Source of the DNA: a bacterium
GTDB lineage: Bacteria; UBA8248
Length of the DNA: 64,000 nt
Assembly: GCA_965204535.1 (NCBI GenBank)
Contig: CBDBEV010000001.1
Location: 2,176,001-2,240,000 of the forward strand
Reading direction: 5' to 3'
The position numbers and the translations under genes are program-made. The notes under the pieces are model-generated. The model made no database searches and was not told where the DNA came from. It worked only from the letters and a program-made list of their open reading frames with translations. Position 1 is the stretch's first letter, and every line of letters begins with the position of its first letter. Of this stretch, positions 15,801 to 33,805 are shown piece after piece.

Positions 15801-16459
15801 TTAAGTTTGGGATTGAAAAGATTGGTGAGTTGAAGACGGATAGCAAGACAGAGCTTGCTGATACGCTAGGTGAACACTTGTTCACTTATTACGTTTGGGA
15901 TGTTTATCCACTGAGGGGTCAAAATAGTCTACTGGAAATGTATTACGAAAAGACAATAGAAGATAAAGAGCGGTGGTCTCACTTGTTTGATCATGTTGGG
16001 CGTTCCCTGAAAAACAGCGGAAGAGAATTAGAAGAAGACCTGAAAGAGAGAATTATCGAGTTTTTTAACTGGCGATTTGAGCAAAGAGAATCTTCTGAAC
16101 TCAATATGTTTACATTTTGGCTAGCAGCGGAGTGTCTGGATGCGGAATGGCGGCTCAGGTCGTATTCGAAGATACTCGATGTGTGTGGGACAGAAGGCAT
16201 CAGAACATACACTCAGTTGGAATCTCTGCTAAAGATGCTCAAGAACCATACTGCGCTTGTCGTTGAGTGCTTCGCCAAATTGACTGAAGTTGCAATTAAA
16301 AGCGGTAGCAATACCTATATTCATTCCATTGACCAAGCGAAACCCATCCTTCTTGCTGGGCTGAACAGCGATAATGAAGTCGTGCGGAAAAATGCCGAGC
16401 ACGCTCGCGAGAATCTCCTGAAAGGCGATCACTTCGATCTTGTGAATCTTGACGAATAA
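12863..16459 (+). CDS. 1198-aa protein: N-terminal PIN-like domain (DUF4935/PIN_12 type) plus large helical C-terminal region; candidate defence protein
   Basis: LYIDTEVF...MERELLRHF...PPFSERKRKEFPDAFIL...AVISADGDF with acidic residues intact; gene visibly AT-richer than its neighbours. Confidence 0.75.
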   Translation: MRHTPTSLYIDTEVFKRNGLRLNTAEFDLLKSTFVKGGLRLLVPAMMERELLRHFQRQSEECADAVEKAQSKHPLPFLEMWSPLSRDEIIDKCFMELKTQWELFKSHFTVEQLPLVGDIERVVDNYFLVNPPFSERKRKEFPDAFILSTLDAYHKKHKANIAVISADGDFAEACKTRRYIQHLADLEKFVDAFKPELTREQYFTEEPVDPTQPIATEDLTQLKTILDRGADVTPLEIRRVLKLLRSRGQNYHYFFSNANEPIWLPHLKDSAFFENPPEVEQTEDGSFKIPFWPPIHYLESVFESVSDKEEVLGILEELPKTTNPRVVERIVTIILKSDDSNDLVRFSDVILTFIDHSAWNYEKIIRLLQKLSLLDKQIGLFSESVLLKVVEFQPDKQAEDKQARYKADPEGWPSPLYPKPRIDEWEYQEILEKGVRPLAEREPYQVARILTDAVATMIRLGIHQEQLEKVGGNDRSAIWCQRVNEPVREHRDSDENLVQTLTFACEKVYEKTPQFVDLLDQSLRNQRWNIFLRIRQHLYAKFLVLTKPWIREMILAHQDYSNRKHDFEFQQMIRLACEHFGAGLLTEAEKERIFEAILSGPSEQDYRDWMGDDFTEEVFELQKRYFHKIQLAPFAPVLSGVYNNYFQELKLEEKRPVEDDDYAPYKSGGPKWIEKRSQKTPDELKEMADEDILSFLNEWESVDRDPDEWWVEITFGALAETFQRTLKEFIIPDESRLNFWLRNRDQIKRPIYVRAMMSAIQEHVKDKQFDKLEEWFDVCEWILLHPDQPEEAGVSRSDESKTHPDWSSSRRVVGEFIGMCLKEDVDVPISTRDRLSTLLGDLCTQFDQRLDEDKPVLLNRDDPLTEAINNTRSRALESLVDFGYWVRRQLKDEKANTPEVFTILEKRFGLESECPLTLPEYALLGMQYSNISVLNREWAEKHKSDFFLQNDLRTWAEAFGNFLKYNRPHRMTFDILRDEFKFGIEKIGELKTDSKTELADTLGEHLFTYYVWDVYPLRGQNSLLEMYYEKTIEDKERWSHLFDHVGRSLKNSGRELEEDLKERIIEFFNWRFEQRESSELNMFTFWLAAECLDAEWRLRSYSKILDVCGTEGIRTYTQLESLLKMLKNHTALVVECFAKLTEVAIKSGSNTYIHSIDQAKPILLAGLNSDNEVVRKNAEHARENLLKGDHFDLVNLDE

Positions 16460-18022: not shown

Positions 18023-19021
18023 TCAGGGTTTCAGAATCACCTTGATGGCCGCATCCGGCTTGTCCTGAACGGCGAACGCCTCGGGAGCTTCATCGAGATC
18101 GAGGACATGGGAAATCAGAGGCCGGCGCCGGACCTGGCCGCTTTCGACCAACTCGATGGCGCGGCGGTAGTCGTCCCCGGTCCAGGTCCATGACCCGTGG
18201 ATGGCGACGTGTTTGCGCACCACCTGGTTGAAGTCCAGATCCCCCAGGCGCTCGAACAGGGCGACCAGCACCAGACGGCCGTAATCCTGCTTCAGCATGA
18301 GCAGGCCCTCGTTCGGCGAAGACGGCGCGCCGGCGCAGTCGATCACCAGATCGGCGTTGCCGCCTCGAACGCCGAAACGCTCCACCGGCCTGGCGCCGCC
18401 CGTGAGTTCGATCACGGCTTCCACCGGGTCGGTTTCGCTCAGGTTGACGGTGGCGTCGGCGCCGAGGCGTTCGGCCATGTTCAAGCGGCGCCCGGAAGCG
18501 TCGACGACGATGATGCGGCAGTCGACGCTCGCCCGGATGGCCTGGACGCAGCCGAGACCGATGATGCCGGCGCCCAGAACGACCACCGTCTCACCGGCCG
18601 CGGGCCGTCCGAGGGACACGCCGTGCAGGGAGGTGGCCAGCGGCTCGAGCGTCGCGCCCTCCTCGAAGCTGACGGACTCCGGCAGGATGTGCGGGCTGCG
18701 CTCGGTAACGCGAACCGGCACGTACTCCGCGAATCCGCCGTGGCCCAGCCCGGTGATGCGGTCCCCGACGGAAAAGCCGCTGACCTTCTCCCCCACCTCG
18801 ACGATTTCACCGCTCAGTTCATGACCCATGATGCGCCGGTGCTCGTCAATCCGCCGCCCCAGCACCTCGAACATGCCGAGGCGGTACATGTGCAGGTCGG
18901 AACCGCAAATGCCGCACGCCTTGACGCGCACCAATACGTCATGTTCGCCGGCGCCCGGCCGCTCCACCTGCTCCACCCGGATGTCCCGCGGTCCGTGATA
19001 AACGGCTGCTTTCATCTGCAT
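18023..19021 (-). CDS. Zn-dependent medium-chain dehydrogenase (threonine/sorbitol dehydrogenase-like)
   Basis: CGICGSDLH, MGHELSGE, EPLA, LGAGIIG; lacks the four-Cys structural-Zn lobe. Confidence 0.9.
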   Translation of the reverse strand: MQMKAAVYHGPRDIRVEQVERPGAGEHDVLVRVKACGICGSDLHMYRLGMFEVLGRRIDEHRRIMGHELSGEIVEVGEKVSGFSVGDRITGLGHGGFAEYVPVRVTERSPHILPESVSFEEGATLEPLATSLHGVSLGRPAAGETVVVLGAGIIGLGCVQAIRASVDCRIIVVDASGRRLNMAERLGADATVNLSETDPVEAVIELTGGARPVERFGVRGGNADLVIDCAGAPSSPNEGLLMLKQDYGRLVLVALFERLGDLDFNQVVRKHVAIHGSWTWTGDDYRRAIELVESGQVRRRPLISHVLDLDEAPEAFAVQDKPDAAIKVILKP

Positions 19022-19114
19022 ACTCGGTTCCTTCTGCCTGGGCGGCGCCGGGTCGCCTGAATCAGATGGTCATACGGGCGGCCCGGTGCGGGAGAATACA
19101 GAAATACAGCAATC

Positions 19115-19540
19115 GACCCTCAAGGGGTTGTTGAAAAAGCCGGTATGTCGCCCTTGCGAAGATCGCTCTTCACCAACGAGAATATCAAATCAACTCCCCC
19201 TCAAGGGGGGAGTGAATAAAAAATTCTTCTCGGTGGAAGAAAAACCCCCCTGACAAGGGGGGTAGGGGGGTTGCTTCTTTGAGATGAGAAGGGGTTTTTC
19301 AACAGCCCCTTGAGGGTCTGGCTTCCCGAGGGGAAAGCCAGACGATGAAGCCGAGCGTTTTGTGTGACGGCTGAATCGGTGGGGGGACGATTCAAAATTA
19401 AAAGCTCCCCCCACCAGTTCGCTTGCGGGCTTGCGCCCTTAGCTCACTGACTCCCTCTCAAGGGGGGAGTTGATCTCTTAACCCTCATTGGTCGGGATTG
19501 ACCTTCGATACGCGGCTTCGCCGCTACTCAGGGTGAGGTC
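19115..19540. repeat. Palindromic repeat cluster with MITE-type ends
   Basis: 24-bp inverted repeat gaccctcaagggg(t/c)tgttgaaaaa at 19115-19138 and 19295-19318; aactcccc-tcaagggggag units; ccttcgatacg...ctactcagggtgagg unit. Confidence 0.8.
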
Positions 19541-19627
19541 GATACGGCGGCCAGGCGGGACGAGGGGAACGCATTCGCTCCCGAGGCATGTTGTTCAACA
19601 TGCCCGTGTGGGCCTATTTCCGCGAGG

Positions 19628-20653
19628 ATGACGAATATGACGGCGATCGATCCCCACACCCATATCTATCCCGAGCGGTTCATCGCGGACGTGCGCGCGG
19701 GCCGCTTCGGACGCACGGCGACGATAGAGGCCGACGAACACGGCGAGTGGCTCATCACGCGCGGAAAGGTGCTCGGGCGCGACTCGGAACTCAGGAACAA
19801 GCTCACGCCCCTATATTATGAGATCGAGCCGCGCTTCGCCGACATGGAGCGCATGGGCGTCGCGCATCAGGTGCTCTCCATCGGCCCCGCCATGACGCTC
19901 TATACGCTTGAGGCGGAAGCGAACAAGGAACTGGCTGCCTCGCTGAACGACGGCCTCACAGCGCTGACGGTGGAGTACCCCGACAAGTTCTCCTGCATGG
20001 CCACCGTTCCCCTCCAGGCGCCCGAAGCTGCGGCGGCGGAACTCGAACGGGCGTGCGCGAACGGTCACTTGGGCGTGATGATCGCCTCGAACGTGGCAGG
20101 GGAGAACCTCGACGGTCCGGGGTTGGACGTCTTCTGGGCGAAGGCGGAGACACTCGACATGCCCGTGTTCGTGCACCCCACGAACGTGCTGGGCGGGGAC
20201 GACCGCTTAAAGGATTTCTACCTGAGGAACTTCATCGGCAATCCGCTCGACACCACGGTCGCGGTCGCGTGCCTCATCTTCGGCGGCGTGATGGACAGGT
20301 TCCCGGGGCTTCGGTTCTATCTCTCCCACGTGGGCGGCTTCGTGCCCTGGATACGGGGACGCTGGCAGCACGGCTACGGCGAACGCAGGGAGCCCAAGGT
20401 GCATGGCGCGAAAGACCCCGAGCAGTATTTCGGCCGCTTCTATTACGACACCATCATCCACAACGCGGACTGCTTCGAGTTCGCGGCGAAGACGCTGGGA
20501 GCGGAGCGGATTCTCTACGGCACGGACTATCCGGCGGACATGGGCTATCACCAGCCCGCGCGGGATATCCCGGGCCTGAGTCGCCTCCCGGAAGCGGAGC
20601 AGGAGATGATTCTCACGACCAACGCCAGGCGCGTCTACGGGCTTGCGATATAG
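19628..20653 (+). CDS. Amidohydrolase_2 family protein (ACMSD/decarboxylase-like)
   Basis: IDPHTH, MPVFVHP, LSHVGG, FYYDT, ILYGTDYP. Confidence 0.9.
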   Translation: MTNMTAIDPHTHIYPERFIADVRAGRFGRTATIEADEHGEWLITRGKVLGRDSELRNKLTPLYYEIEPRFADMERMGVAHQVLSIGPAMTLYTLEAEANKELAASLNDGLTALTVEYPDKFSCMATVPLQAPEAAAAELERACANGHLGVMIASNVAGENLDGPGLDVFWAKAETLDMPVFVHPTNVLGGDDRLKDFYLRNFIGNPLDTTVAVACLIFGGVMDRFPGLRFYLSHVGGFVPWIRGRWQHGYGERREPKVHGAKDPEQYFGRFYYDTIIHNADCFEFAAKTLGAERILYGTDYPADMGYHQPARDIPGLSRLPEAEQEMILTTNARRVYGLAI

Positions 20654-20736
20654 GGGCTGGACAAAGCGTCTTCCGGGTGTAAAATTCAGGTAAGTATTCC
20701 AGTTCGAGCCGGTTCAACTGCAAAGGGGAAGTTCCG

Positions 20737-21024
20737 ATGGAGGAAACCACCTTCCGCGTGGGCGACAGGGTGCGCATCAAGGAGATGTACCCCGACGGCC
20801 ACCACCGGACGACGTACTTCGTGAAGGGAAAGACGGGCGTCGTCAACCGCTATTTCGGCAAATACAAGAACCCCGAGAATCTCGCCTACGGCGGCGACGG
20901 CCTGCCGCTCCGGGAACTCTACTGGGTGGAGTTCGACATCAACGATCTCTGGGACCACGAGGCGGGGAAAAAACAGGACAAACTCTATATCGAGATTTAC
21001 GAGCATTGGCTGGAGCCGGTCTAG
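20737..21024 (+). CDS. Nitrile hydratase beta subunit, C-terminal SH3-like half only (ScnA-like)
   Basis: FRVGDRVRI...GHHRTTYFVKGKTGVV...NPENLAYG...LYWVEF...DLW...DKLYIEIYEHWLEP. Confidence 0.88.
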   Translation: MEETTFRVGDRVRIKEMYPDGHHRTTYFVKGKTGVVNRYFGKYKNPENLAYGGDGLPLRELYWVEFDINDLWDHEAGKKQDKLYIEIYEHWLEPV

Positions 21025-21062
21025 GCGAATCCGCCGGCTCCCCCGTGAGCAAGGAGCACACC

Positions 21063-21827
21063 ATGGCGCACTCACACGATCACCACAACGGCGGACATGT
21101 TCACCACCACGGCGAGCATCCCCACACCTACAGCCAGGACCCCTCGGCGCACAACGCGCGGATGCAGTCCGACGACGCCTACCGCGAAGGAGCCGTGGCC
21201 CAGGTCGAGCACGACCTGGACTACTACCAGGTGCGCATGATGGCGCTGATGAACGTCCTCCGCGAGAAGGGCCTTCTCACGACGGACGAGATGCGGCGCG
21301 CGGTGGAGGAGATCTACGGCCAGAGCCCGGCCATCGGTTCGCGCATCATCGCGCGCGCCTGGGTCGATGAGGGCTTCAAGGAAAGGCTCCTGGCGGACGC
21401 GGACGCCGCCTGCGGCGAGATGGGCGTCGACACCACGGGCATCAACCGCGTGGTGGCGCTCGAGAATACCGACACGACCCGCTACATGGTGGTGTGCACG
21501 CTGTGTTCGTGCTACCCGAGGCAAATCCTCGGGCAGCCCCCCACCTGGTACAAGAGCTTCCCCTATCGCTCGAAGGCCGTGACGGACCCGAGGGGAACCC
21601 TGAAGGACATGGGCTTCGAGGCGCCCGACGACGTGGAACTCATCGTCATCGACTCGAACGCGGATTGCCGCTATCTCATCATCCCCCAGCGTCCGGCGGG
21701 GACCGAGGACTGGAGCGAGGCGCAGCTCTTCCAGCTCGTGACGCGCGATTCGATGATCGGCGTGGGCGATCCCTTAACACCCGCGCAGCTCGAGCAAGCC
21801 ATACAGGCGTCGGGGCAGGCCAGCTGA
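21063..21827 (+). CDS. nthA: Cobalt-type nitrile hydratase alpha / thiocyanate hydrolase gamma-like subunit with His-rich N-terminus
   Basis: Metal-binding VVCTLCSCYP (Co-type Thr/Tyr), ARAWVD..FKERLL, RYLIIPQRPAGTEDWSE, VTRDSMIGV; AAGGAG RBS. Confidence 0.9.
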   Translation: MAHSHDHHNGGHVHHHGEHPHTYSQDPSAHNARMQSDDAYREGAVAQVEHDLDYYQVRMMALMNVLREKGLLTTDEMRRAVEEIYGQSPAIGSRIIARAWVDEGFKERLLADADAACGEMGVDTTGINRVVALENTDTTRYMVVCTLCSCYPRQILGQPPTWYKSFPYRSKAVTDPRGTLKDMGFEAPDDVELIVIDSNADCRYLIIPQRPAGTEDWSEAQLFQLVTRDSMIGVGDPLTPAQLEQAIQASGQAS

Positions 21828-21850
21828 TCTGGGGCAAAATCGTTTCACGT

Positions 21851-21881
21851 GGCGGGGGTGGAAGCTCCCGCCGCTTTTTTT
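21851..21881 (+). terminator. Putative intrinsic terminator
   Basis: ggcgggggt-ggaa-gctcccgcc followed by a T run. Confidence 0.6.
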
Positions 21882-21895
21882 CGGGATGAGAACGA

Positions 21896-23302
21896 ATGCC
21901 CTCGCCTCGCGTCATCGCGATCCAGTTCGACGGTCTGCGGGCCGACGCTCTGAGTGAGGAGTCCACGCCGAATCTCCTCGTGGCGGCGAAGCGCGGCGCG
22001 TGGTTTCAGAATCACCGCAGCACGTTTCCCACCTCGACGAGAGTCTGCGTATCGAGCCTCGCCACCGGCGTTTATCCCCAAAAGCACGGCCTGCCGGGCA
22101 ATTCGCTCTTCTCGCGCGAACTGGGCCGAACCATCACGACGGGCTGCCATGAGAATCTCGTAAACTGGCAGCGCGCCATGGGCGGGCGTCTGCTGTTGCG
22201 GGACACCTTTTTCGAGCGGGTGGGGGGCGGCGTCATCATCAGCGCGGCGTCGAGCGGTTCCGCCTGGCTCTGGAACGCGGGCCGCGCCGCGCGCCTGATC
22301 CATCCCGTTGCGGAGTACCCTGCCGGGGAGCGCGAAGAAATAGAGGAGGCGGGAGAAATCCCCCCTGCCGGCGAGCCGGATCTTCCGCGCTGCGAATGGG
22401 CGCTCGACGTGGCGCTCGATTACGCGATCCCGAAACTCGCGCCCCCGGTGCTCGTGGCTCACCTGAGCGAGCCGGACAGCACGCAGCATCACCAGGGCGC
22501 CGCAGGCGCGGTTCACCGCCAGGCGCTCGAAGGAGTGGACAGGCTGTTCGGCGCATTCTGGGAGAGGTTTCAGGCGGAGCGCGATGACTGGAGTCAGACG
22601 AACCTTCTCCTGTTCTCGGACCACGGAGTCGTGGCGACGGCGGGCATGATCGACCTGGATGCGGAACTTGGCGATCTCCCCGGCCGCGGGGAGAGCTGGC
22701 AGGCGGCGCACAGCGAGGGGACCGCTCTTTTCTACGCCGAATCGGAAAATACGCTTATCGAACTCGCCGCGTTCTTGCGGACGAAAGAATGGGCGGGGCC
22801 ATTGTTCTCGAAAGAGGGGGATGGAGCGGCGGGCGCGCTGCCGGGGACGATGTCCCTGGGACTGGCGGGTTGCGGCGGTGCCCGCGCGCCGGATTTGCTC
22901 ATGGGCTTTCAGTGGGGCGATGGCTTTTTACGAGACGAGAACCCCGAGGGCGCGCTCCCCGGCTGGGGATATTCATCCGTCAACAACAAGGGCGGCGGCG
23001 GAACGCACGGCTCGTGCAGTCCGTATGAGCTTCGCAACTTCCTGATTGGCGCAGGCCCCGCTTTTCCGGCGGGCGCGCGGGTGGACGCGCCGACGGGCAA
23101 CATCGACCTGGCCCCCACCATCCTCTCCCTGATGGGGAGGGAGACCTCCGGCCTCGATGGAGAGCCGCTCACCAAAACGCCCCGTGCGAGGGGCGAGGAG
23201 CGGCTCTACCGGGTGGAATCGAAGGATGTCGCGCAGACCCTCTCGCGGGCGGAGGCGGACGGGCGGTTTTATCTCAATTTCGCCAGGCTGGAGAGGGCGT
23301 AG
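21896..23302 (+). CDS. Alkaline phosphatase superfamily protein (nucleotide pyrophosphatase/phosphodiesterase-like)
   Basis: IQFDGLRAD, STFPTSTR..SSLATG, SEPDSTQH, FSDHG, GTHGS, NIDLAPTI. Confidence 0.85.
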   Translation: MPSPRVIAIQFDGLRADALSEESTPNLLVAAKRGAWFQNHRSTFPTSTRVCVSSLATGVYPQKHGLPGNSLFSRELGRTITTGCHENLVNWQRAMGGRLLLRDTFFERVGGGVIISAASSGSAWLWNAGRAARLIHPVAEYPAGEREEIEEAGEIPPAGEPDLPRCEWALDVALDYAIPKLAPPVLVAHLSEPDSTQHHQGAAGAVHRQALEGVDRLFGAFWERFQAERDDWSQTNLLLFSDHGVVATAGMIDLDAELGDLPGRGESWQAAHSEGTALFYAESENTLIELAAFLRTKEWAGPLFSKEGDGAAGALPGTMSLGLAGCGGARAPDLLMGFQWGDGFLRDENPEGALPGWGYSSVNNKGGGGTHGSCSPYELRNFLIGAGPAFPAGARVDAPTGNIDLAPTILSLMGRETSGLDGEPLTKTPRARGEERLYRVESKDVAQTLSRAEADGRFYLNFARLERA

Positions 23303-23308
23303 GTTTAT

Positions 23309-23683
23309 GGGGTTGTTGACCCCCAAAGGGGTATTGCCTCCTATCAAGAGTGTTCGCCGTCATTCCAGCTTTCGCCGGAACGACGAACAAGACCGCGCCG
23401 CTTCTTGTAGGGACAGGTCGCGACCTGTCCCTACGGGCCCCCTCCCCGGTCGGGTTCGTGCCCTCGATACGGCGCGCAAGCGCGCCTACTTGGGATGAGG
23501 GAGAGTGGTTCCGCTACCTGGAGGTTTTGCAGGAGGCCCGTGGTTTCCTACATCAGGACAGGCACAGGGGCCTGTCCCTACGCCTCATTTCGAGTTCGGG
23601 GTTCCGTAGGGGCGGCCCCCCGTGGCCGCCCTTGGCGGGGGGTAAAAGCGATGCCTCCCGACGAGGACTTTTCCAACAACCTC
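23309..23683. mobile_element. MITE-like element packed with REP-type hairpins
   Basis: Ends GGGGTTGTTGA / CCAACAACCTC, flanks TTTAT / TTTAC; contains gtagggacaggtcgcgacctgtccctac, ggacaggcacaggggcctgtccctac, gtaggggcggccccccgtggccgccc. Confidence 0.6.
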
Positions 23684-23730
23684 TTTACAATCGGCGCGCG
23701 GAGGGCGGCAGGCGTGTCCCGAACGCTCGC

Positions 23731-24636
23731 CTAACGCTCGGCGTCCGTATACGCGGCGCGTTCCTCGTCCTTGAAGTCGTCCAGCAGGTTGTGCCCGCCC
23801 TCTTGTCCCTGCCGGACGGCGAAGATGGGCGGCGGCACGTCGGGGCGCCATTTGGTGGTCTCGGGCGGCTCGGGCCACTCATAGGGCAGGTGCCGGTAGG
23901 CGTTGGGCGCGTTCGCCTCTTCGAGCAGCGCGGCCATGTCCTCGCAAATCCGGCGCTGGCCCGTGTAATCGCCCACGACGCCCAACTGCCGCCCGAAGGG
24001 ATACTGGACGAAAACGGCTCTCGGCACGCAGACGCGCTCGGTGGTCTCGGGCACGTTGGAGATGATGACGGTGGCGATCCCCGCCTTTTCGATCTCGCGC
24101 TGAAGCAGTCCGCCGGACCGGTTGCAGAGCGGTCAGACCGGATAGAGGAAGGCCGCGTCCACGCCTTCGGCCTTCATCTTCTCGATCATCAGGGGCGCCG
24201 TGCGCTTCACCAGCGGGTTGAAGTTCGGGATGTAGCCCATGATGGAATAGAGCGTCTCGGCCAGCGCGCCGATTCTCCCCTCCCTCTCGAAATCGAGGAA
24301 GATGTCGACCGGCCAGGACACGTTCCTGTCCTCGGCCATGAACGAGGTGTCGACGTGCAGGTGGGAATACGCCACGTCGTCCTGGCCCGCTGATTTGGGA
24401 ATCTCCCGGTGGGTGGGGTCGCCCCAGGTGCCCTCGCGGCGCTCCCGCTCGTAATCGAAAGAAACGTCGTCCTTCATGAAGATGCCGGCCGTGGAGACGA
24501 GCGTGACCCTGCACTCGGCGAGCGGTTTCGCCATCGGCGTCCACGGCGTTTTGGCCGGGTCGGCGTGGCGCTGCGCCAGGACGCGCTCGCGCGAGGTGGG
24601 GTGAAAATAGAATCCATCTACTTTTTCTACGGCCAT
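23731..24636 (-). CDS. Selenoprotein, PrdB-like (glycine/sarcosine/betaine/D-proline reductase selenoprotein B family), Sec at codon 168
   Basis: ORFs 24133..24642 and 23731..24054 are one frame joined through TGA at 24133-24135: GVDAAFLYPV-U-PLCNRSGGLLQREIEKAGIATVIIS; parallels PrdB VDAVVLTAG-U-GTCHRS..VQRAIEEAGIPT; WTP..KPL, STAG, GDPTHREIP, SH motifs upstream. Confidence 0.9.
24098..24132 (-). promoter_or_regulatory. Putative bacterial SECIS element
   Basis: Starting at nt 13 after UGA: CGGUCC-GGC-GGACUG hairpin with G-containing apical loop; lower stem CGCUCUG/CAGCG possible. Confidence 0.65.
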
Positions 24637-24665
24637 GCTCATCCTCGAATTCGCGGTTCCAGGAT

Positions 24666-25934
24666 TCAGGCGGGAGACGCTCCTCTCTTATCTCTTTTCA
24701 CCCAGCCGAGCAACACGGCGAAGAAGCCGCAGAGAAAGAACATGAGCGCGAAGGCCGACAAGCCCCACAGATAGGAGCCGTGCAGGTCGAACAATGCGCC
24801 CGTCGTCCACGGCCCCGCCGAGCCCCAGAGGGCGAAGCCCATCATCGCCACCCCGTTCACGCGCCCGAATCCCGGGCCTTCGAAATAATCCGCGAGGATG
24901 GCCGAGCCGGTGGGCCGTATGAGGCCGAGCGCCAGACCGTTGGTTATCGTGCCGAGGTAGAAGCGGAACTCGGGGTCTCCCTTCTCGTAGGTGGCGAGGA
25001 CGAGGGCGGAGGCGATTCCGAGCGCGTTGCCGATGAGGTACGTCGGCACCCGGCCGAGGCGGTCGGAGACCGGGCTCACGAGGTTCGCCCCCACTTGGCA
25101 AAGCCCCCAGATGGCGAACAGCACGCTCGCGGTCTGAAGCGAGAAGCCCTGGTCGGTGGCGTGAGGCACCAGATGGACGAGCATGCCCGCGAAGGCGTAG
25201 GCCATGGGCAGGAACGAACCCATGAAGAAGAAAAACGGCAGGTTGTACATGGAGACCGGCGGCCCGTCGGCGGATGGAGGCGCCGGTTCCGGCGCTCCTT
25301 CTTCCGGGAGGTTCTGAACGAAGGGGGCGTCGGCGATGGTGCCTTTCTCGGACGGGTGGTCCCTGTGGAAAATGATGCAGACGGGGAGCACGATGAGCAG
25401 CGTCACGCCGGCCAGCGCGAGATAGCTCATCCGCCAGCCCAGGGCCGCGATGAGGTAGGGCGTCGCGATGTTCAGGCAGAAGGCCCCGCCCTGGCAGGTG
25501 TTGGAGATGCCCAGGGCGAGTCCTCTTTTTTTCACGAACCAGTTCGAGAGCGTGGGCACCTGGGCGATCCACGTGCTCGCGGCGAAGCCCGCGCACAGGC
25601 CGATGTACATCAGATAAAAATGCCAGAGCGAGGTGATTTGGCTCCCGATGAGCAGGGAGAGGCCGAACACCACGACGCCCGCCGACATCGACGCCCGGAT
25701 GCTCCAGCGGTCGGAAAAGATGCCCGCCAGCGGCGAGATGATCGCCTGGGCCACCATCCCGATGGAAAAAGCCGCCGCCGTCGCGCCCCGGCTCCAGCCC
25801 AGCTCGCCCGAGATTTCCTTGAAGAAGGGCCCGATGGTGGCGCGGAAGGCGATGAGGGTGATCATGACGAGGAAGACCACGCCCAGAACCACCCAGCCGT
25901 ACCAGAGGCGCGAATCGTCCCGCATGGCGTCCAT
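24666..25934 (-). CDS. MFS transporter (OFA/MCT-like)
   Basis: WYGWVVL, ELGWSR, SDRWSIR, NWFVKKRGLALG, SDRLGR; about 12 TM. Confidence 0.9.
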   Translation of the reverse strand: MDAMRDDSRLWYGWVVLGVVFLVMITLIAFRATIGPFFKEISGELGWSRGATAAAFSIGMVAQAIISPLAGIFSDRWSIRASMSAGVVVFGLSLLIGSQITSLWHFYLMYIGLCAGFAASTWIAQVPTLSNWFVKKRGLALGISNTCQGGAFCLNIATPYLIAALGWRMSYLALAGVTLLIVLPVCIIFHRDHPSEKGTIADAPFVQNLPEEGAPEPAPPSADGPPVSMYNLPFFFFMGSFLPMAYAFAGMLVHLVPHATDQGFSLQTASVLFAIWGLCQVGANLVSPVSDRLGRVPTYLIGNALGIASALVLATYEKGDPEFRFYLGTITNGLALGLIRPTGSAILADYFEGPGFGRVNGVAMMGFALWGSAGPWTTGALFDLHGSYLWGLSAFALMFFLCGFFAVLLGWVKRDKRGASPA

Positions 25935-25938
25935 GGCC

Positions 25939-27228
25939 CTAGGCGCGCTCTTCGCGCGGCATGCGCGAGAGGCTCACCACGAAAACCGCGCCCGTGACGA
26001 ACATGCAGCCCGCGAGGAGGAAACCCGCGTAGTAGTTCCCGCTCGCGTCGAAGAGCATCCCCGTCACGAGGGGGCCTAAAGCGCCCACGACCGAGAAGAC
26101 CATCATCGCGCATCCGTTCACGAGGCCGAAGCCCCGCCCCGCGAAATGATCCGCCAGAAGGGAGGACGCCGTGGGCCGGACGAACCCCAGGGCGAAGCCC
26201 ACCCCCATCGCGCCCGCGTATATCCGCCACCCGGCCGATGCTTGCGTGAAGGCGGCCAGGAGGTAGCACGCGGCCACCCCGCACACCACCCCCACCATGA
26301 AGGTGGGGAGCCTCCCGATGCGATCCGATACCGCGCTCAGCCCGTTTCCCGCGACGAGGGCCGCCCCGTAGAGGGCGAAGAGCGCGGCGCCCCCCGAGGG
26401 GGAGAAGCCCTGGTCCGTCGCGTGGGGGATCAGGTGCACCAGGACGGCGGTGAAGATATACGCGATGCTGCCGTAGATGCCGCCGAGCAGCATGAACCTG
26501 CGTGTGAAGAAAAAAGAGAACGAGGCGGTCTCTTTCTCCTTGTCCAAAGGAATGATGACGGCGGCTCTGGCGCGGGCGCGGGAGAATTCCTCGGAAGTGA
26601 GAAAAGGCGCGTCGGGCGCGGTGCGTTTCTCTCTGGGGTGCTCGCGCAGCAGCGCCGCGGCGAAGGGCAGCAAAAAAAGAAGCACGACCCCCGCCAGCGC
26701 GAGATAGCTCCCCCGCCAGCCGAAGGCCGCGATGAGCAGGGGGGTGAAGATGTTCACGATGGGCGCGAAGCCCTGGGCCGCGTGCGAAAACCCCATCGCC
26801 AGCCCGCGCTTCAAAACGAACCAGTTGGCGAGCAGTTGCACCTGGGGCAGGTTGGCGGTGAAGGCGAAGCCGAGCGAGAGCAGGAAATACATGGCGTAAA
26901 AATGCCAGAGCGCGCCGATGTAGGCCCCGATGATGAGCGCCGCCCCGTTCACGAGAATGCCCGCCCCGATCACCCAGCGCATGTTGAAGCGCTCTAACAC
27001 CCATCCCGCGAAAGGAGCCACCACCGCCTGGCCGATCATGCCCATGGTGAAGGCGGCGGCGGTCTGCGCGCGGTTCCAGCCGAACTCGCCCGATATCTCC
27101 TTGAAGAAGACGCCGATGGAGTTTCTGATGCCGATGACCACCGTCATGACGATGAAGACGCTGAGGAGGATCACCCAGCCGTACCACAGGCGCAGTTCTT
27201 TTCGTGTCTGGTAGCGCGATGCGATCAA
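25939..27228 (-). CDS. MFS transporter (OFA/MCT-like), paralogue of the downstream MFS
   Basis: WYGWVIL, EFGWNR, NWFVLKRGLAMG, HLIPHATDQGFS; probable TTG start overlapping the upstream TGA. Confidence 0.88.
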   Translation of the reverse strand: MIASRYQTRKELRLWYGWVILLSVFIVMTVVIGIRNSIGVFFKEISGEFGWNRAQTAAAFTMGMIGQAVVAPFAGWVLERFNMRWVIGAGILVNGAALIIGAYIGALWHFYAMYFLLSLGFAFTANLPQVQLLANWFVLKRGLAMGFSHAAQGFAPIVNIFTPLLIAAFGWRGSYLALAGVVLLFLLPFAAALLREHPREKRTAPDAPFLTSEEFSRARARAAVIIPLDKEKETASFSFFFTRRFMLLGGIYGSIAYIFTAVLVHLIPHATDQGFSPSGGAALFALYGAALVAGNGLSAVSDRIGRLPTFMVGVVCGVAACYLLAAFTQASAGWRIYAGAMGVGFALGFVRPTASSLLADHFAGRGFGLVNGCAMMVFSVVGALGPLVTGMLFDASGNYYAGFLLAGCMFVTGAVFVVSLSRMPREERA

Positions 27229-27563
27229 GTCGGTGACTGGTCTTTGAGCGGATGCCCCACCCAAAACGAATAGCCGGAGTAGAATTTCTCCACCCGTTTG
27301 ATGGCGTGGTCCGAGATGCGCACGCCCTCGACGGCGACGTCCGTGACGCCGGGGTGCTGCATGAGCTTCTGGCGCACGCCCAGGGCGTAGGTGACGCTCT
27401 TGAGCATGCAGCCCCGGCACGCGCCCTCGAAGCGAAGCGAGACTTCGCCCTTCTCGCTCACGCCCTCGAGCGTGATGCCCCCGCCGTGAATCTTGAGCAG
27501 CGGGCGGATCTGCGTCTCGATGATGTCCTGGACGTCTGAGATGAGGGCTTCGTGGTCGTTCAT
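27225..27563 (-). CDS. NifU/NfuA C-terminal domain protein
   Basis: IRPLLKIHGGGITL...FEGACRGC (CxxC); ATG overlaps the amidohydrolase stop (ATGA). Confidence 0.85.
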   Translation of the reverse strand: MNDHEALISDVQDIIETQIRPLLKIHGGGITLEGVSEKGEVSLRFEGACRGCMLKSVTYALGVRQKLMQHPGVTDVAVEGVRISDHAIKRVEKFYSGYSFWVGHPLKDQSPT

Positions 27564-28588
27564 CGCGCCGCTCCGTTCCAGAGTTCCTGTTTCTTCGCCT
27601 CCACGTCCACGCCGAAGATGCGCGCCTGGTTGAGGCCCAGGATGTTGCGCTTGTCCTCTTCCGTGATCTGCGGATAGCCGTAGTCGTCCTGCATGGATTC
27701 GGGGATTTCCATCTCCCATATCCACTCGATGACGGGCTTCGCGTTCCCCAGAAGCGCCATCTCCGAACCCCAGAGCACTCGCTCGGAGCCCACGTCGCGC
27801 AGCAGCCTGCCCATCCACTCGGTGAAAGTCCTCGGCGCGATCATCGGCGTGTGGCCGATGCCCGAGAGCACGAGGAACACGTTCTCGTAGCGGTTCGCCA
27901 TCCAGACGACTTCCTCGAAGTAGGGCACCGCCAGGTGGTGGACGCCGAAGAGCATATCCGGGAAATCGAGCGCCGCGCCCTCGATGTCGAGCGGGGATAA
28001 GTCGCGCAGCTTCGCCCGCGTGATGGGGTTTCCCTTGTGGAACTGGAACACCTCGACGCCCAGCTCGCGCCCTTTCTCATAGAGGGGATAGGCGATTTCG
28101 GGGTCGTCGCACGCCCAGGATTTCCCGTCCACGTGGGCGTTGTAGATTTTGATGGACCTCGCCCCCCACTCCTTCACCTGGCGCTCCATCTCCTCGCACG
28201 CGGCGGCCACGCTCGGGTACATGGGGTCCACGGCCCCGCAGAACAGGCAGCGTTCGGGATAGGCCCGGGCGAAGGCGTACTGCGCCTTCACGGGCGCGAA
28301 GCCGTCCTTATACAGATCGAACAGGGGCACGGCCTGGGCCATCGCCATGTCGGTGCCCGAATCCTCGAAGACGAGGCGGCCCATGTCCTCGACGGTCCAG
28401 CGGCGCTTGAAGCCCTCCACCGGGTGCCAGTTCGCGTAGACGTCCGTGGGCGCGGTCCGCCTCCTGCCCAGCACCTTGCTCACGTGGTAGTGGCGGTCGT
28501 ATTCGCTCTTCTCGGAGATAAGGTTCTCGTCCGAGTAGTCGTACATGTGCACCACGTTGTCGAAGACGAATACGTCGTCGCGGATCAT
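27560..28588 (-). CDS. Amidohydrolase_2 family metallohydrolase
   Basis: FDNVVHMY, IKIYNA, FHKG, VHHL, VLWGSE, KRNILGLNQAR; AAGGAG RBS. Confidence 0.85.
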   Translation of the reverse strand: MIRDDVFVFDNVVHMYDYSDENLISEKSEYDRHYHVSKVLGRRRTAPTDVYANWHPVEGFKRRWTVEDMGRLVFEDSGTDMAMAQAVPLFDLYKDGFAPVKAQYAFARAYPERCLFCGAVDPMYPSVAAACEEMERQVKEWGARSIKIYNAHVDGKSWACDDPEIAYPLYEKGRELGVEVFQFHKGNPITRAKLRDLSPLDIEGAALDFPDMLFGVHHLAVPYFEEVVWMANRYENVFLVLSGIGHTPMIAPRTFTEWMGRLLRDVGSERVLWGSEMALLGNAKPVIEWIWEMEIPESMQDDYGYPQITEEDKRNILGLNQARIFGVDVEAKKQELWNGAAR

Positions 28589-28795
28589 GAGAGGAAACTC
28601 CTTCCGTGGGACAAGAATCACCACCGCCAGATTAGCACACGGCGCGCGGGCGTGTCAGACGGGGAGGTGAATCAGGAGGCGTTTTCTCCACGGGTTCAGG
28701 TAAACCCGCAAACGGTTCGCTGTTGGACTTGAGTCCAAAGTGCGCGTAGAAAAGGCTCTGGTTTTTCACGCGGCCAGGGAATCGAGGAGCAGGAC

Positions 28796-29665
28796 ATGGA
28801 CTGGGTGACGCTCGCCGTCATAGCGGCCCTCGCGCAGGTGCTCAGAAACGCGGCGATGAAATCCATCGGCCACAAGCTCGACGAGTACATCAACGTGCTG
28901 GGGCGGTTCGCGTTCCTGCTGCCCTTCGCGGCCGCCGCGGTGTGGATGAGGGGCGTGCCCGAGATACAGCCCGGCTTCTGGTGGTATTGCGCCCTGTTCG
29001 GCTTCCTGCAGACCTCGGCCACGCTCTCGCTCTCGAAAGCGCTCCTCTACGGCTCGATGGGCGTGGTGACCTCGCTCTGGAAGCTCGCGACCATCTGGCT
29101 GGTGGTGCTCGCTTTCATCACGCTGGGCGAGGCGCCCTCGGCCTGGGGGCTTCTGGGCATCATCGTCACCCTGGCGGGCGTCTACGGGCTGAACGTCTCG
29201 CGCGCGCGGATCGGCTGGTTCGAGCCCGTGCGCGCCATATTCACCGACAAGGGGATGCGCTACACCGTGCTCGCCTCGCTGCTCTACGCGCCCTCGGTGA
29301 TCACCTTCAAGCAGGCGGCGGTGCTCTCGGACGCGACTTTCGGGACTTTCGCGACCTATGCGGCGGCGTCGATCGTCGTGCTGCCGCTCACCCTGTGGAA
29401 ATCCGCCGAACACTTCAAGGACGCGCCCAGACTCTGGAAGGGCTTCGTCTCCCTGGGGCTGTTCGCCTTCATCACGAGCCTCGCCCAGGCGGAGGCCTAC
29501 CGGCTCACGCTCACCTCCTACGTGGAGTCGGTGAAGCAGGTCGAGATTCTCCTGGCCATCGGGATCGGCTACGTCTTCTTCAGGGAGCGCGACCGCGTGC
29601 GCGAAACGCTCCTGGGCGGCGTGGTGATCCTGGCGGGGATCGTTCTCCTGATCCTGGCGGGGTGA
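28796..29665 (+). CDS. EamA/DMT family transporter
   Basis: About 10 TM, two-repeat layout, YVESVKQVEIL...GYVFFRE. Confidence 0.85.
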   Translation: MDWVTLAVIAALAQVLRNAAMKSIGHKLDEYINVLGRFAFLLPFAAAAVWMRGVPEIQPGFWWYCALFGFLQTSATLSLSKALLYGSMGVVTSLWKLATIWLVVLAFITLGEAPSAWGLLGIIVTLAGVYGLNVSRARIGWFEPVRAIFTDKGMRYTVLASLLYAPSVITFKQAAVLSDATFGTFATYAAASIVVLPLTLWKSAEHFKDAPRLWKGFVSLGLFAFITSLAQAEAYRLTLTSYVESVKQVEILLAIGIGYVFFRERDRVRETLLGGVVILAGIVLLILAG

Positions 29666-31528: not shown

Positions 31529-33805
31529 ATGATGTTCAAAGACAAGTATATTCACAAGTTTTACGCTTTCGCGCTGGCGGCCGTGTTCGCGCTGACGCTG
31601 GCCGGCTGCGGCGGTGGCGGCGGCGGCAGTGCTGCTGCGCCGGACCCTGACCCGCCAGCGATGCCGACAGCTTATGAGGTGGCGGTTGATGCAATCGCGG
31701 CAGCCGAGACGGAGGCAGATGCGCGGGCGGCTGTGACCGCTGCGGTGGCAGCCGGCATCACAGGCGCGCAGCTTCAGAGCCTCAACATGAAGGTCGCAGA
31801 GCGCGTGACGGCGCTGGCGGAGATGGCGGCGGAGGAGCAGCGCAAGATGCTGGTCGATGCGGCCAAGTGTGAAGCTGCGACACAGGCATGCGTGGACGCG
31901 CACAACGCGCTGATCGAAGCGTTGGAGGGCGATGTCGCCAAGCTGGCCGACGATGAGGACGCCACCAACGCCGAAGAACAGGCCGCGCAGAAGGCCCTCG
32001 AAGATGCGAAAGCGAAGCGCGACGAGGTCGCGATGGCGCTTGCCGACGATATGCGGGACACCGAGACCGGCATGAAGGTCACGGCGGCCGAGACGGCGGC
32101 CGAGGGGCTTGAGGATGCCCGGACTGCCGAGGACATCGCAGACGCCGAGGAGGCCATTGCGGCCGCCAAGAGGGCGATTGCGGAAGGCGACGACCCGGAT
32201 GCCTTCATGGCCGTGATTGAGGCAGCGGAAATGGCCGTGGCGCGCGCCAAGGAACTGAACGCCATTGATGCGGCAATCATGGCGGCCGATACGGCGGCTG
32301 ACGGGCTGGTCGACGACTCGGATGCCGACGCCGTTGCGGCTGCCCAGGCGTTGATAGATGCAGCGAAGGCGCTTGTCGCTGGAAACGAACACCTCACCGA
32401 TGCGGAAGAGACCTCCTACACCGGGGAGATCGCGGACCTCCAGCGCCCGGTCACCCTGGCGAAGAACCGCAATGACGACGCCGCGAAGAAAGAAGAGGAC
32501 GCGCGCAAGGCCGCAGAAGATGAAAAGCAGCGCAAGGCGAACGAGGCCATGGCCGCCACGGCTGCGAAGCTGTATGCGGGAATCGGTGCTCCTATGGGGG
32601 TGGTCGGCACCTACGCAACCACCGACCGCATCGCGGGCTATGCTGGAACCAACGATAGCCAGATCGCGGTGCAGATCGGCACCGACCCGGCGGCCACTGC
32701 GGCTACCGCCACTCTCTCGGAAGACAAGAAAACGACGGTCCCCGACAACCACGGCTGGGAAGGCAAGAGGTACACGCATTCGGTGACGACTGGTGCCGAT
32801 AAGGGCGACATGTACGAAGCGGTCGTCTACTCGGATGTCGGCGCACCGACGATGGGTGCGAAGTTCTCGGCTCAGTATCCCGGCACCGAAGCCTTTGTGT
32901 CCGACGCAGGGGTGGTGACCGTTGACACCACTGACCCAGATACGCCAGCGTCGAGAGTTGCCATCGATAGCTTCACCCTGTCGGCTGGTACGAAGACCTT
33001 CCCGTTGCCGGATCCGAACCCGACCGATGTAGCGGCTATCTCCGAAGCTGGCAGCTTTCACGGGGTGCGCGGCACCTACAAGTGTGTGCCGACCTCAGCA
33101 ACCGACACCTGCTCTGCCACGCTGGCCACCAAGGGTCTCACGCTTACGGGCGGTACTTGGACGTTCACGCCCACCGACGCAAATGCCCGGGTGACGGAGT
33201 CGGCGGACAGCGACTACTCCTCCTACGGCTGGTGGCTCCTCCGCACGAAGGCGGACGGCTCGCTGACCGCGGGCGCCTTTGTGGATGACAGGAACACGGC
33301 CCCCACCACCGACGTCTCTGACTTGGTGGCGGGAAGCGCCACGTATAGGGGCGGCGCAGCCGGCAAGTACGCTTTGAGCAGCGCCACGGGCGGCACGAAC
33401 GACGCCGGCCACTTCACCGCGAGGGCGACGCTTGAGGCCGATTTCGAGAAGGACGAGGTCACCGGCACCATCGACCGGTTCATGGCGGACGGCGAGTCGA
33501 AGGATTGGACCGTCGAGTTGAAGAAGTCCGCCCTCTTCAATAACGGGACTGTGATTGGTGACCCCACCCGCGACGGAATCGATCTTACGGCGGCACCCGT
33601 AGCCGACGACGTGGCCCAGAAAACAGTCTGGACCATCGGCGGGAAGGCCGAAGCCGCCGATGGCGAGTGGTCCGGAGCGCTCAAGGACACCGCTGACACC
33701 AAGACCGACACCACCGGCGTTCCGAAGGTCGGGACCGGCACGTTCTACACCGAGTACGGCACTGCTGGCAGGATGGTCGGCGCGTTCGGCGTGAAGAAGC
33801 AGTAG
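31529..33805 (+). CDS. Large surface lipoprotein: Ala-rich helical stalk and C-terminal TbpB/HupA-like beta-barrel
   Basis: Lipobox LTLAGC, Gly/Pro linker, Ala/Glu/Asp helical region, C-terminal ATYRGGAAGKY...FTARATLEADF...GTF...MVGAFGV; AGGAGG RBS. Confidence 0.8.
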   Translation: MMFKDKYIHKFYAFALAAVFALTLAGCGGGGGGSAAAPDPDPPAMPTAYEVAVDAIAAAETEADARAAVTAAVAAGITGAQLQSLNMKVAERVTALAEMAAEEQRKMLVDAAKCEAATQACVDAHNALIEALEGDVAKLADDEDATNAEEQAAQKALEDAKAKRDEVAMALADDMRDTETGMKVTAAETAAEGLEDARTAEDIADAEEAIAAAKRAIAEGDDPDAFMAVIEAAEMAVARAKELNAIDAAIMAADTAADGLVDDSDADAVAAAQALIDAAKALVAGNEHLTDAEETSYTGEIADLQRPVTLAKNRNDDAAKKEEDARKAAEDEKQRKANEAMAATAAKLYAGIGAPMGVVGTYATTDRIAGYAGTNDSQIAVQIGTDPAATAATATLSEDKKTTVPDNHGWEGKRYTHSVTTGADKGDMYEAVVYSDVGAPTMGAKFSAQYPGTEAFVSDAGVVTVDTTDPDTPASRVAIDSFTLSAGTKTFPLPDPNPTDVAAISEAGSFHGVRGTYKCVPTSATDTCSATLATKGLTLTGGTWTFTPTDANARVTESADSDYSSYGWWLLRTKADGSLTAGAFVDDRNTAPTTDVSDLVAGSATYRGGAAGKYALSSATGGTNDAGHFTARATLEADFEKDEVTGTIDRFMADGESKDWTVELKKSALFNNGTVIGDPTRDGIDLTAAPVADDVAQKTVWTIGGKAEAADGEWSGALKDTADTKTDTTGVPKVGTGTFYTEYGTAGRMVGAFGVKKQ

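Follow-up and report, generated by a model that had tools for sequence, protein, structure and literature searches.

A Conserved Amidohydrolase–Nfu Gene Pair, Likely Joined Later by a PrdB-like Selenoprotein in One Bacterial Genus

Results

A probable five-gene operon

We analyzed a 64,000-nucleotide stretch of bacterial DNA (the window; GenBank assembly GCA_965204535.1, contig CBDBEV010000001.1, positions 2,176,001 to 2,240,000, lineage UBA8248), close relatives of which are labeled Nitrospinota or Nitrospinaceae in database records. Our subject is a string of five genes encoding an amidohydrolase-fold barrel, an Nfu domain, two major facilitator superfamily transporters (MFS1 and MFS2), and a PrdB-like selenoprotein (Table 1). 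An initial annotation of this DNA had described them as co-oriented and tightly packed, and the coordinates confirm this: the amidohydrolase stop overlaps the Nfu start as ATGA, the Nfu stop overlaps the MFS1 start as TTGA, and gaps of 4 bp and 29 bp follow MFS1 and MFS2, respectively. The larger gap is measured to an ATG at 24636, which is preceded by a GAGGA ribosome site and matched by a start codon at the equivalent place in the 16 orthologous junctions listed; an alternative in-frame ATG at 24642 would shorten it to 23 bp. The gene identities first proposed, including the CRGC motif of the NifU-type protein, are likewise supported by Pfam and by the in-frame TGA of the selenoprotein gene. 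Contigs from a run of a separate study (X7) cover 23727-26011 and 26080-28659 with the identical arrangement, which is therefore not a mis-assembly.

Table 1. Genes and RNA feature of the five-gene locus (positions within the window)
Feature	Coordinates	Strand	Basis and remarks
PF04909 amidohydrolase-2-fold TIM barrel, 342 aa	28588-27560	minus	Pfam; core gene 1, family uncharacterized
Single Nfu (NifU C-terminal) domain, PF01106, 112 aa, CRGC = C49/C52	27563-27225	minus	Pfam; core gene 2
MFS1, PF07690, 429 aa, TTG start	27228-25939	minus	Pfam
MFS2, PF07690, 422 aa	25934-24666	minus	Pfam
Orphan PrdB-like UxxC selenoprotein gene, PF07355	24636-23731	minus	Pfam and in-frame TGA 24135-24133
SECIS-like (selenocysteine insertion sequence) hairpin core, six-pair stem, GGC loop	24106-24120	minus	Predicted fold and conservation across orthologues

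A promoter scan of 23300-29000 found no sites against 0.8 expected, promoter and terminator scans together gave nothing above chance, and an Rfam scan of the window returned a tRNA and nothing else. A single RNA run (sponge metagenome, contigs, share 0.05) gave patchy cover of the region, in the form of contigs that cannot show transcript ends or co-transcription. The five genes probably form an operon in the host bacterium's genus, as the initial annotation had read them.

The conserved unit is the amidohydrolase–Nfu pair

Among 23 genomes of the host genus, the five-gene set is linked in 22, and it is linked in no other group. In all 22 genus genomes that have both, the amidohydrolase and selenoprotein genes keep their order and stand within 8 kb of each other; the 23rd (G017, 79% complete) gave no amidohydrolase match. 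Since these genomes are kin, the 22 linked cases reflect one joining event. The set is not rigid within the genus. Two full MFS genes are present at 15 of 18 other genus loci, a single MFS at two and a truncated MFS1 at one; MFS1 and the second MFS are dispensable. At two of the 18 loci, 2.9 kb of opposite-strand genes separate MFS2 from the selenoprotein gene. These inserts (L047:5145-8041 and L049:9046-11942) sit inside the MFS2 3' end and carry, by inspection, AhpD-like, polysaccharide-deacetylase-like and extradiol-dioxygenase-like genes, and a remnant resembling the MFS2 end persists upstream of the selenoprotein gene. One-base indels, possibly sequencing errors, interrupt the selenoprotein gene at 3/18 loci, and at one locus 2.5 kb of inserted DNA parts the amidohydrolase gene from the Nfu gene, the amidohydrolase gene there also containing a TAG.

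Outside the genus, we analyzed 98 loci retrieved via the amidohydrolase, a set from which five genus loci had been removed and in which near-duplicates remain. An Nfu gene follows the amidohydrolase gene at a distance of no more than 400 nt in 93 of them (three of the others were too short and two were without it), whereas the selenoprotein gene was found in 0/98, and in 0/42 of those that extend 4.5 kb or more downstream. In 6 of these 42, the next gene after the pair encodes an MFS protein. Hosts of the pair include Reyranella, Mesorhizobium, Paenarthrobacter and Acidimicrobiaceae. The sister genus (g22) has the EamA, amidohydrolase, Nfu and single MFS genes together with facing nitrile-hydratase genes, with no selenoprotein gene among them. 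In 19 family genomes outside the genus (threshold E <= 1e-60; incomplete metagenome-assembled genomes, in which a gene may be present though not found), the selenoprotein was found alone in 12, the amidohydrolase alone in three, both on different contigs in two, and neither in two. The gene-neighborhood comparison proposed with the initial annotation thus goes against co-conservation of the five genes outside the genus, at the 98 loci as in the family, where 15/19 genomes are discordant. The locus is instead layered: at the level of the family, the pair is followed by one MFS, and the addition of a second MFS and of the selenoprotein is confined to the genus.

The pair itself reaches far. The barrel profile extends to 200 clusters at 50% identity (E <= 1e-30), and distant barrels gave 35 plasmid matches at 27-41% identity. 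In all 14 of these 35 records that were inspected, the adjacent gene encodes NifU (one record) or a DUF59/"iron-sulfur cluster assembly" protein (13 records), and these hosts span Proteobacteria, Actinomycetota, Bacillota, Thermomicrobiota and haloarchaea; in five further matches, an adjacent Nfu gene was judged by coordinates. Four of the 14 plasmid loci stand directly behind propane-type di-iron monooxygenase genes. The amidohydrolase and Nfu genes share a 4-base overlap in 74/107 loci, a count inflated by choosing the start nearest that position and by 23 loci from the genus. Together, these results identify the amidohydrolase–Nfu pair as the unit conserved across phyla, in bacteria and archaea. 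Recurring neighbors of the pair are SDRs, alcohol and aldehyde dehydrogenases, regulators, ABC transporters, HbpS/GlcG, RidA and FAA-hydrolase genes, a company that points to catabolism of small organic compounds with no single substrate.

Natural fusions were sought among long barrel-family members, and 0/26 carried a PF01106 or PF01883 domain; two singleton amidohydrolase–Nfu fusions (P0199, P0200) proved to be frameshift artefacts with garbled linkers and truncated barrels. Among literature titles and abstracts, mostly outside subscription papers, none assigned a function to the pair.

A barrel with an altered metal site

The barrel was modeled with a pLDDT of 94. Its best structural match is the uncharacterized protein BB4693 (3irs; Z 26.6, rmsd 3.1, 271 aligned, 18% identity), which was also the sole match in a PDB sequence search, and an ESM Atlas search returned unnamed amidohydrolase clusters alone. 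Canonical PF04909 members use a strand-1 HxH motif and a strand-8 Asp for metal binding and acid-base catalysis. The present protein has the PF04909 TIM barrel of a canonical ACMSD-type hydrolase or decarboxylase, but not these residues, reading V12-V-H14 on strand 1, where V12 replaces the first metal His, and ending strand 8 with E276; D10, H14, K147, Y149, H184, K185 and H218 are kept.

Of 148 representatives returned at 50% identity, 60 were full-length, and we assessed conservation in these. H14 is kept in 59, H184 in 58, H218 in 60, K147 in 59 and Y149 in 55, with K185 within the range 55-60. Position 12 is His in only 4/60, and position 276 is Asp or Glu in 17 (Asp in seven) and Gly in 39. 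In 93 close homologues, position 12 is Val in 69 and Ala in 23, strand 8 ends in Glu in 86 and in Asp in six, and a second His, H217, is kept in 92. Because neither the first metal His nor an acid at strand 8 is found in most of the barrel family, ordinary hydrolysis by this protein, assumed in the initial annotation, appears doubtful.

A dedicated Nfu-type partner

The 112-aa partner scores 59.2 bits for PF01106 (cut-off 27), as expected of an Nfu-type carrier domain, and it has the CxxC motif. C49, C52, T58 and R90 are invariant in 70/70 partner sequences. The fold matches CnfU (2z51; Z 9.8, rmsd 2.1, 74 aligned), with an extra C-terminal helix (S84, A87, R90); the motif of this helix was matched by pattern in 3/13 DUF59 partners, with weak profile scores. 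The partner is distinct from the housekeeping two-domain NfuA, for which it scores 43.1 against a TIGR03341 cut-off of 269, and an NfuA-like gene of that kind lies elsewhere in the genome, at G000:C2:2591689. Relative to established Nfu and NfuA carriers (CnfU and the C-terminal domain of human NFU1, 2m5o), the fold and CxxC are shared, whereas the present protein is a stand-alone single domain, bears the additional helix and is tied to one client gene.

Client enzymes receive iron-sulfur (Fe-S) clusters or iron from Nfu proteins and from the DUF59 proteins SufT and PaaD. Since two Fe-S-carrier families fill the same gene slot beside the barrel, we favor iron delivery over dithiol reduction of the selenoprotein, and the Nfu protein is likely a metal carrier for the amidohydrolase. 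Two roles had been suggested for it at the outset; the metal carrier stands as likely, whereas the dithiol reductant is not supported, the selenoprotein standing next to the pair at 0/98 loci outside the genus. The functional tie between the NifU-type protein and the amidohydrolase is supported.

A selenoprotein with its own history

The selenoprotein reading frame stays open across the TGA at 24135-24133, giving V-U-P-L-C, and an in-frame TGA is found in every full-length orthologue or close paralogue of 33/41 searched genomes. A hairpin, CGGTCC-GGC-GGACTG, begins 12 nt past the UGA; its core sequence is unchanged in 20 of the 30 sequences listed. The genome encodes tRNA-Sec, SelB and other selenocysteine (Sec) genes, including a Sec-containing grd cluster. 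The original selenoprotein call thus gains from the conserved in-frame UGA, the SECIS-like hairpin and the Sec machinery; these sequences support UGA read-through well, presumably with Sec inserted. The grd cluster (G000:C2:69891-76211) reads grdC-grdA(Sec)-grdE-...-grdB(Sec), resembles those of glycine/sarcosine/betaine reductases and has two unrelated genes inserted; no grdD was seen in its open reading frame (ORF) list.

With 36 bits for PF07355 (cut-off 22) and a UxxC motif, the protein has the PrdB-family signature, but its score for PrdB proper (TIGR04483) is 126.7 bits against a cut-off of 300. PrdA was not found in this genome (95.7% complete), where the one PF09338 gene is a 427-aa GrdE/G-type gene of the grd cluster scoring 33.4 against 700 for TIGR04480. 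A PDB sequence search with the selenoprotein found no match. Two further PrdB-like Sec paralogues (65% and 39% identity), making three in total, lie away from the other four genes. In genome G032, at L050:7700-9583, PrdB-like Sec genes stand in tandem, the first apparently frameshifted.

In a 41-row tree, the operon selenoprotein is sister to the copy of another genus (g2), with support 94/87, below the starred level. The g2 copy stands beside a cyclase and an alpha/beta hydrolase, and no amidohydrolase match was found in 5/5 g2 genomes. Neighbors of the selenoprotein family vary by lineage, comprising the cyclase and alpha/beta hydrolase, a zinc-binding dehydrogenase with an SDR, an MDMPI protein with radical SAM proteins, and a dihydroorotase-like protein. 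The passages of PMC2398784 that treat the "Proline reductase PrdB" UxxC family place it among the most abundant selenoproteins in ocean metagenomes (GOS), with 235 sequences, and the parts of a 2026 review that concern it (PMC13188914) mention the clostridial prdB-prdC context alone. PF07355, UxxC and Sec by UGA read-through are common to the present protein and to PrdB and its GOS family, whereas PrdB is shorter and the present score falls below the PrdB cut-off in a genome where PrdA was not found. As judged by sequence, the selenoprotein is a new member of this known orphan family, and it likely joined the locus later.

Monocarboxylate-type transporters

MFS1 and MFS2 are 47.6% identical, and of the two, MFS2 is the nearer relative of the single MFS that follows the pair in g22. 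For the L-lactate MFS (SfMCT) and oxalate-formate antiporter equivalogs, the nearest named families, the scores were 98.9 (MFS1 for SfMCT, in bits) and 105.4 against a cut-off of 320, which makes these families the nearest relatives alone; by these scores, MFS1 is related to monocarboxylate/L-lactate-type MFS. Both paralogues carry the motifs first described (HATDQGFS, RPTxS..LAD.F.G.GFG.VNG), although the motifs are not unusual, a third MFS elsewhere in the genome having FATDVGFS.

Facing genes and other features of the window

Facing the operon on the plus strand (19628-23302) are genes for an ACMSD-like amidohydrolase, a 95-aa protein consisting of the nitrile hydratase beta C-terminal part only, a nitrile hydratase alpha protein with CTLCSC and a His-rich N-terminus, which we take to be of the cobalt type, and a PF01663 phosphodiesterase. 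This cluster flanks the amidohydrolase-Nfu-MFS core in the genus, in g22 and at locus L116, and its linkage is therefore older than that of the selenoprotein. At 17/18 genus loci (and in G014 and G022), a second ACMSD-like amidohydrolase gene lies upstream of the position equivalent to 19628; in the window, the area at 19061-19627 has instead a zinc-binding dehydrogenase gene (18023-19021, minus) and repeat-rich DNA. An EamA transporter gene (28796-29665, plus), divergent from the operon, stands beside the amidohydrolase gene in the genus, in g22 and at L116. Farther out are a gene for a 758-aa predicted lipoprotein (31529-33805, plus) with an alanine-rich coiled region and a C-terminus resembling, by inspection, transferrin-binding-protein barrels, and a 1198-aa ORF (12863-16459, plus) that may encode a PIN-domain or defence protein and lies within an island of low GC (0.46-0.49).

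Discussion

A layered locus

The reading that we favor, at somewhat better than even odds, is a layered locus in which the old barrel–Nfu core likely comprises an iron-dependent catabolic enzyme and its dedicated iron/Fe-S loading partner, with transporters and a selenoprotein likely added later. Under this reading, the Nfu CxxC would bind iron or an Fe-S cluster and either hand it to, or hold it against, the His14/His184/His218 site of the barrel. A small oxygenated organic compound would then undergo a nonhydrolytic conversion in the barrel (an isomerization, a hydration/dehydration or an oxidation), transport of this substrate or of the acid product would fall to the monocarboxylate-type MFS, and the selenoprotein would be a cotranscribed yet independent Sec/Cys redox enzyme. 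A more specific role as an acetol oxidase/isomerase or diol dehydratase, suggested by ADH, DJ-1, HbpS/GlcG and MIP neighbors, found no direct support and was set aside.

That the amidohydrolase fold can host iron chemistry is illustrated by AibH1H2 (sections of PMC7782822), one of the amidohydrolase-related dinuclear oxygenases (AROs: AibH1H2, PtmU3, SfbO, DitZ), PF04909 "amidohydrolases" that are described in parts of PMC13154177 and PMC7782822 as iron or manganese redox enzymes. The present barrel shares their fold (Z 17-20). AROs differ, however, in having the D-x-H and D-x-P-H-x-D/E motifs by which PMC13154177 defines them, and their partner is a Rieske ferredoxin rather than Nfu. We rejected ARO membership for the barrel, the N-terminal position of which reads V-V-H; the C-terminal D-x-P-H-x-D/E motif is absent here and in 60/60 representatives.

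Another known system is the accessory pair of group V soluble di-iron (propane) monooxygenase clusters, an amidohydrolase gene and an iron-sulfur cluster assembly gene labeled a and b in Fig. 5 of PMC9213486, where the labels carry no function. Its barrel is homologous (~30% identity), shares the K-x-Y, H-K and H motifs, and is encoded next to a small Fe-S-assembly-type gene. In contrast to the pair described here, the partner is annotated as DUF59/PF01883, is ~240-280 aa long and has PTxWC/PTAFC, and HxH and a strand-8 Asp are still present in the barrel; at the present locus, a 112-aa CxxC Nfu domain fills the partner's place and the neighborhood has no monooxygenase. More tentatively, and short of an even chance, we propose that the pair represents an unrecognized cross-domain PF04909 iron-enzyme class with a three-His/Lys/Tyr site and a dedicated partner of Fe-S-carrier fold recruited twice (Nfu and DUF59). 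Such a class would be distinct from hydrolases and AROs and would explain the accessory propane-monooxygenase genes.

Evidence against the layered, iron-dependent reading

Several observations weigh against this reading. No cysteine is conserved across the wider barrel family, where C117 and C160 vary, and the barrel itself therefore cannot be a classical Cys-ligated Fe-S enzyme. A 68%-identical amidohydrolase paralogue in the same genome has no adjacent Nfu gene, nor do loci L116 and L169; the partner is thus not obligatory in cis. The barrel here keeps the acid E276, as do LigY and LigJ (for LigJ, E284 in a PDB title), and zinc-dependent hydrolysis or hydration by it is possible. The tight linkage of the selenoprotein in 22/23 genus genomes would also fit a joint function acquired recently. 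A cluster shared between C117/C160 of the barrel and the Nfu CxxC was rejected, these barrel cysteines not being kept in the wider family. As a separate observation, the 68% paralogue (G000:C1:639049-640071) is present in 17/23 genus genomes and adjoins two M24-like peptidase genes, divergent from succinate dehydrogenase genes.

Alternative explanations

We also weighed the view that the barrel belongs with the ordinary Zn/Mn enzymes of the LigJ/LigY/ACMSD type (hydrolases, hydratases or decarboxylases), with Nfu as a structural small subunit or folding chaperone and no iron delivery. The close subfamily holds E276 (86/93) together with H217, and the top structural neighbors are PF04909 decarboxylases, hydratases and hydrolases (13-19% identity); GroEL also stands beside the pair in monooxygenase clusters. 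LigJ, LigY, LigW, gamma-resorcylate decarboxylase and BB4693 resemble the barrel in their TIM-barrel fold (Z 19-27), but they are at most 19% identical to it and the first metal His is missing here; to our knowledge, none of them needs an Fe-S-carrier partner. The CxxC invariant in 70/70 partners, the filling of one slot by two different Fe-S-carrier families, and the Gly that takes the place of the strand-8 acid in 39/60 representatives speak against an ordinary enzyme, which we regard as unlikely.

Less likely still is the proposal of the initial annotation that import, hydrolysis and Sec-dependent reduction form one pathway, in which the Nfu CxxC would reduce the PrdB-like protein and which may be recent and restricted to the sponge-associated genus. 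Clostridial PrdB works with dithiol donors. The gene order kept in 22/23 genus genomes, the short gaps and the lack of a promoter-like site between 23300 and 29000 fit such a pathway, as does one low-depth metatranscriptome contig spanning the MFS2/selenoprotein junction, for which DNA carry-over is possible. Against it stand the absence of the selenoprotein from all 98 loci outside the genus, its discordant presence in 15 of the 19 family genomes, the placement of its family beside at least four unrelated gene sets, and its separation by insertions (2/18) or frameshifting (3/18, the indels maybe sequencing errors) at genus loci; the genus genomes, moreover, are not independent and count as one joining event. 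With hydrolysis doubtful and the second MFS dispensable, one pathway of five genes is not supported.

Finally, a role of barrel and partner as a metal-handling maturation unit for other metalloenzymes (the di-iron hydroxylase of propane monooxygenase or the neighboring nitrile-hydratase-like proteins) is very unlikely, for although distant homologues lie directly after prmD-like genes and before groEL, the pair faces cobalt-type nitrile hydratase alpha and beta-C-terminal genes in the genus and g22, and the catalytic residues are eroded, most close-subfamily loci are without such a client, having SDRs, regulators, ABC transporters, RidA and HbpS/GlcG as neighbors, and the nitrile hydratase genes run in the other direction.

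Implications

For the selenoprotein, the locus adds one neighborhood to an already catalogued orphan family. The layered reading moves attention from a gene string of one genus to a module of two genes with a wide distribution. Should the partner load iron, many "amidohydrolase" annotations would be wrong, as with the AROs. The module occurs in cultivable hosts (Paracoccus, Rhodococcus, Ensifer, Paenarthrobacter), where it may provide propane/acetone oxidation with a missing step or a maturation factor.

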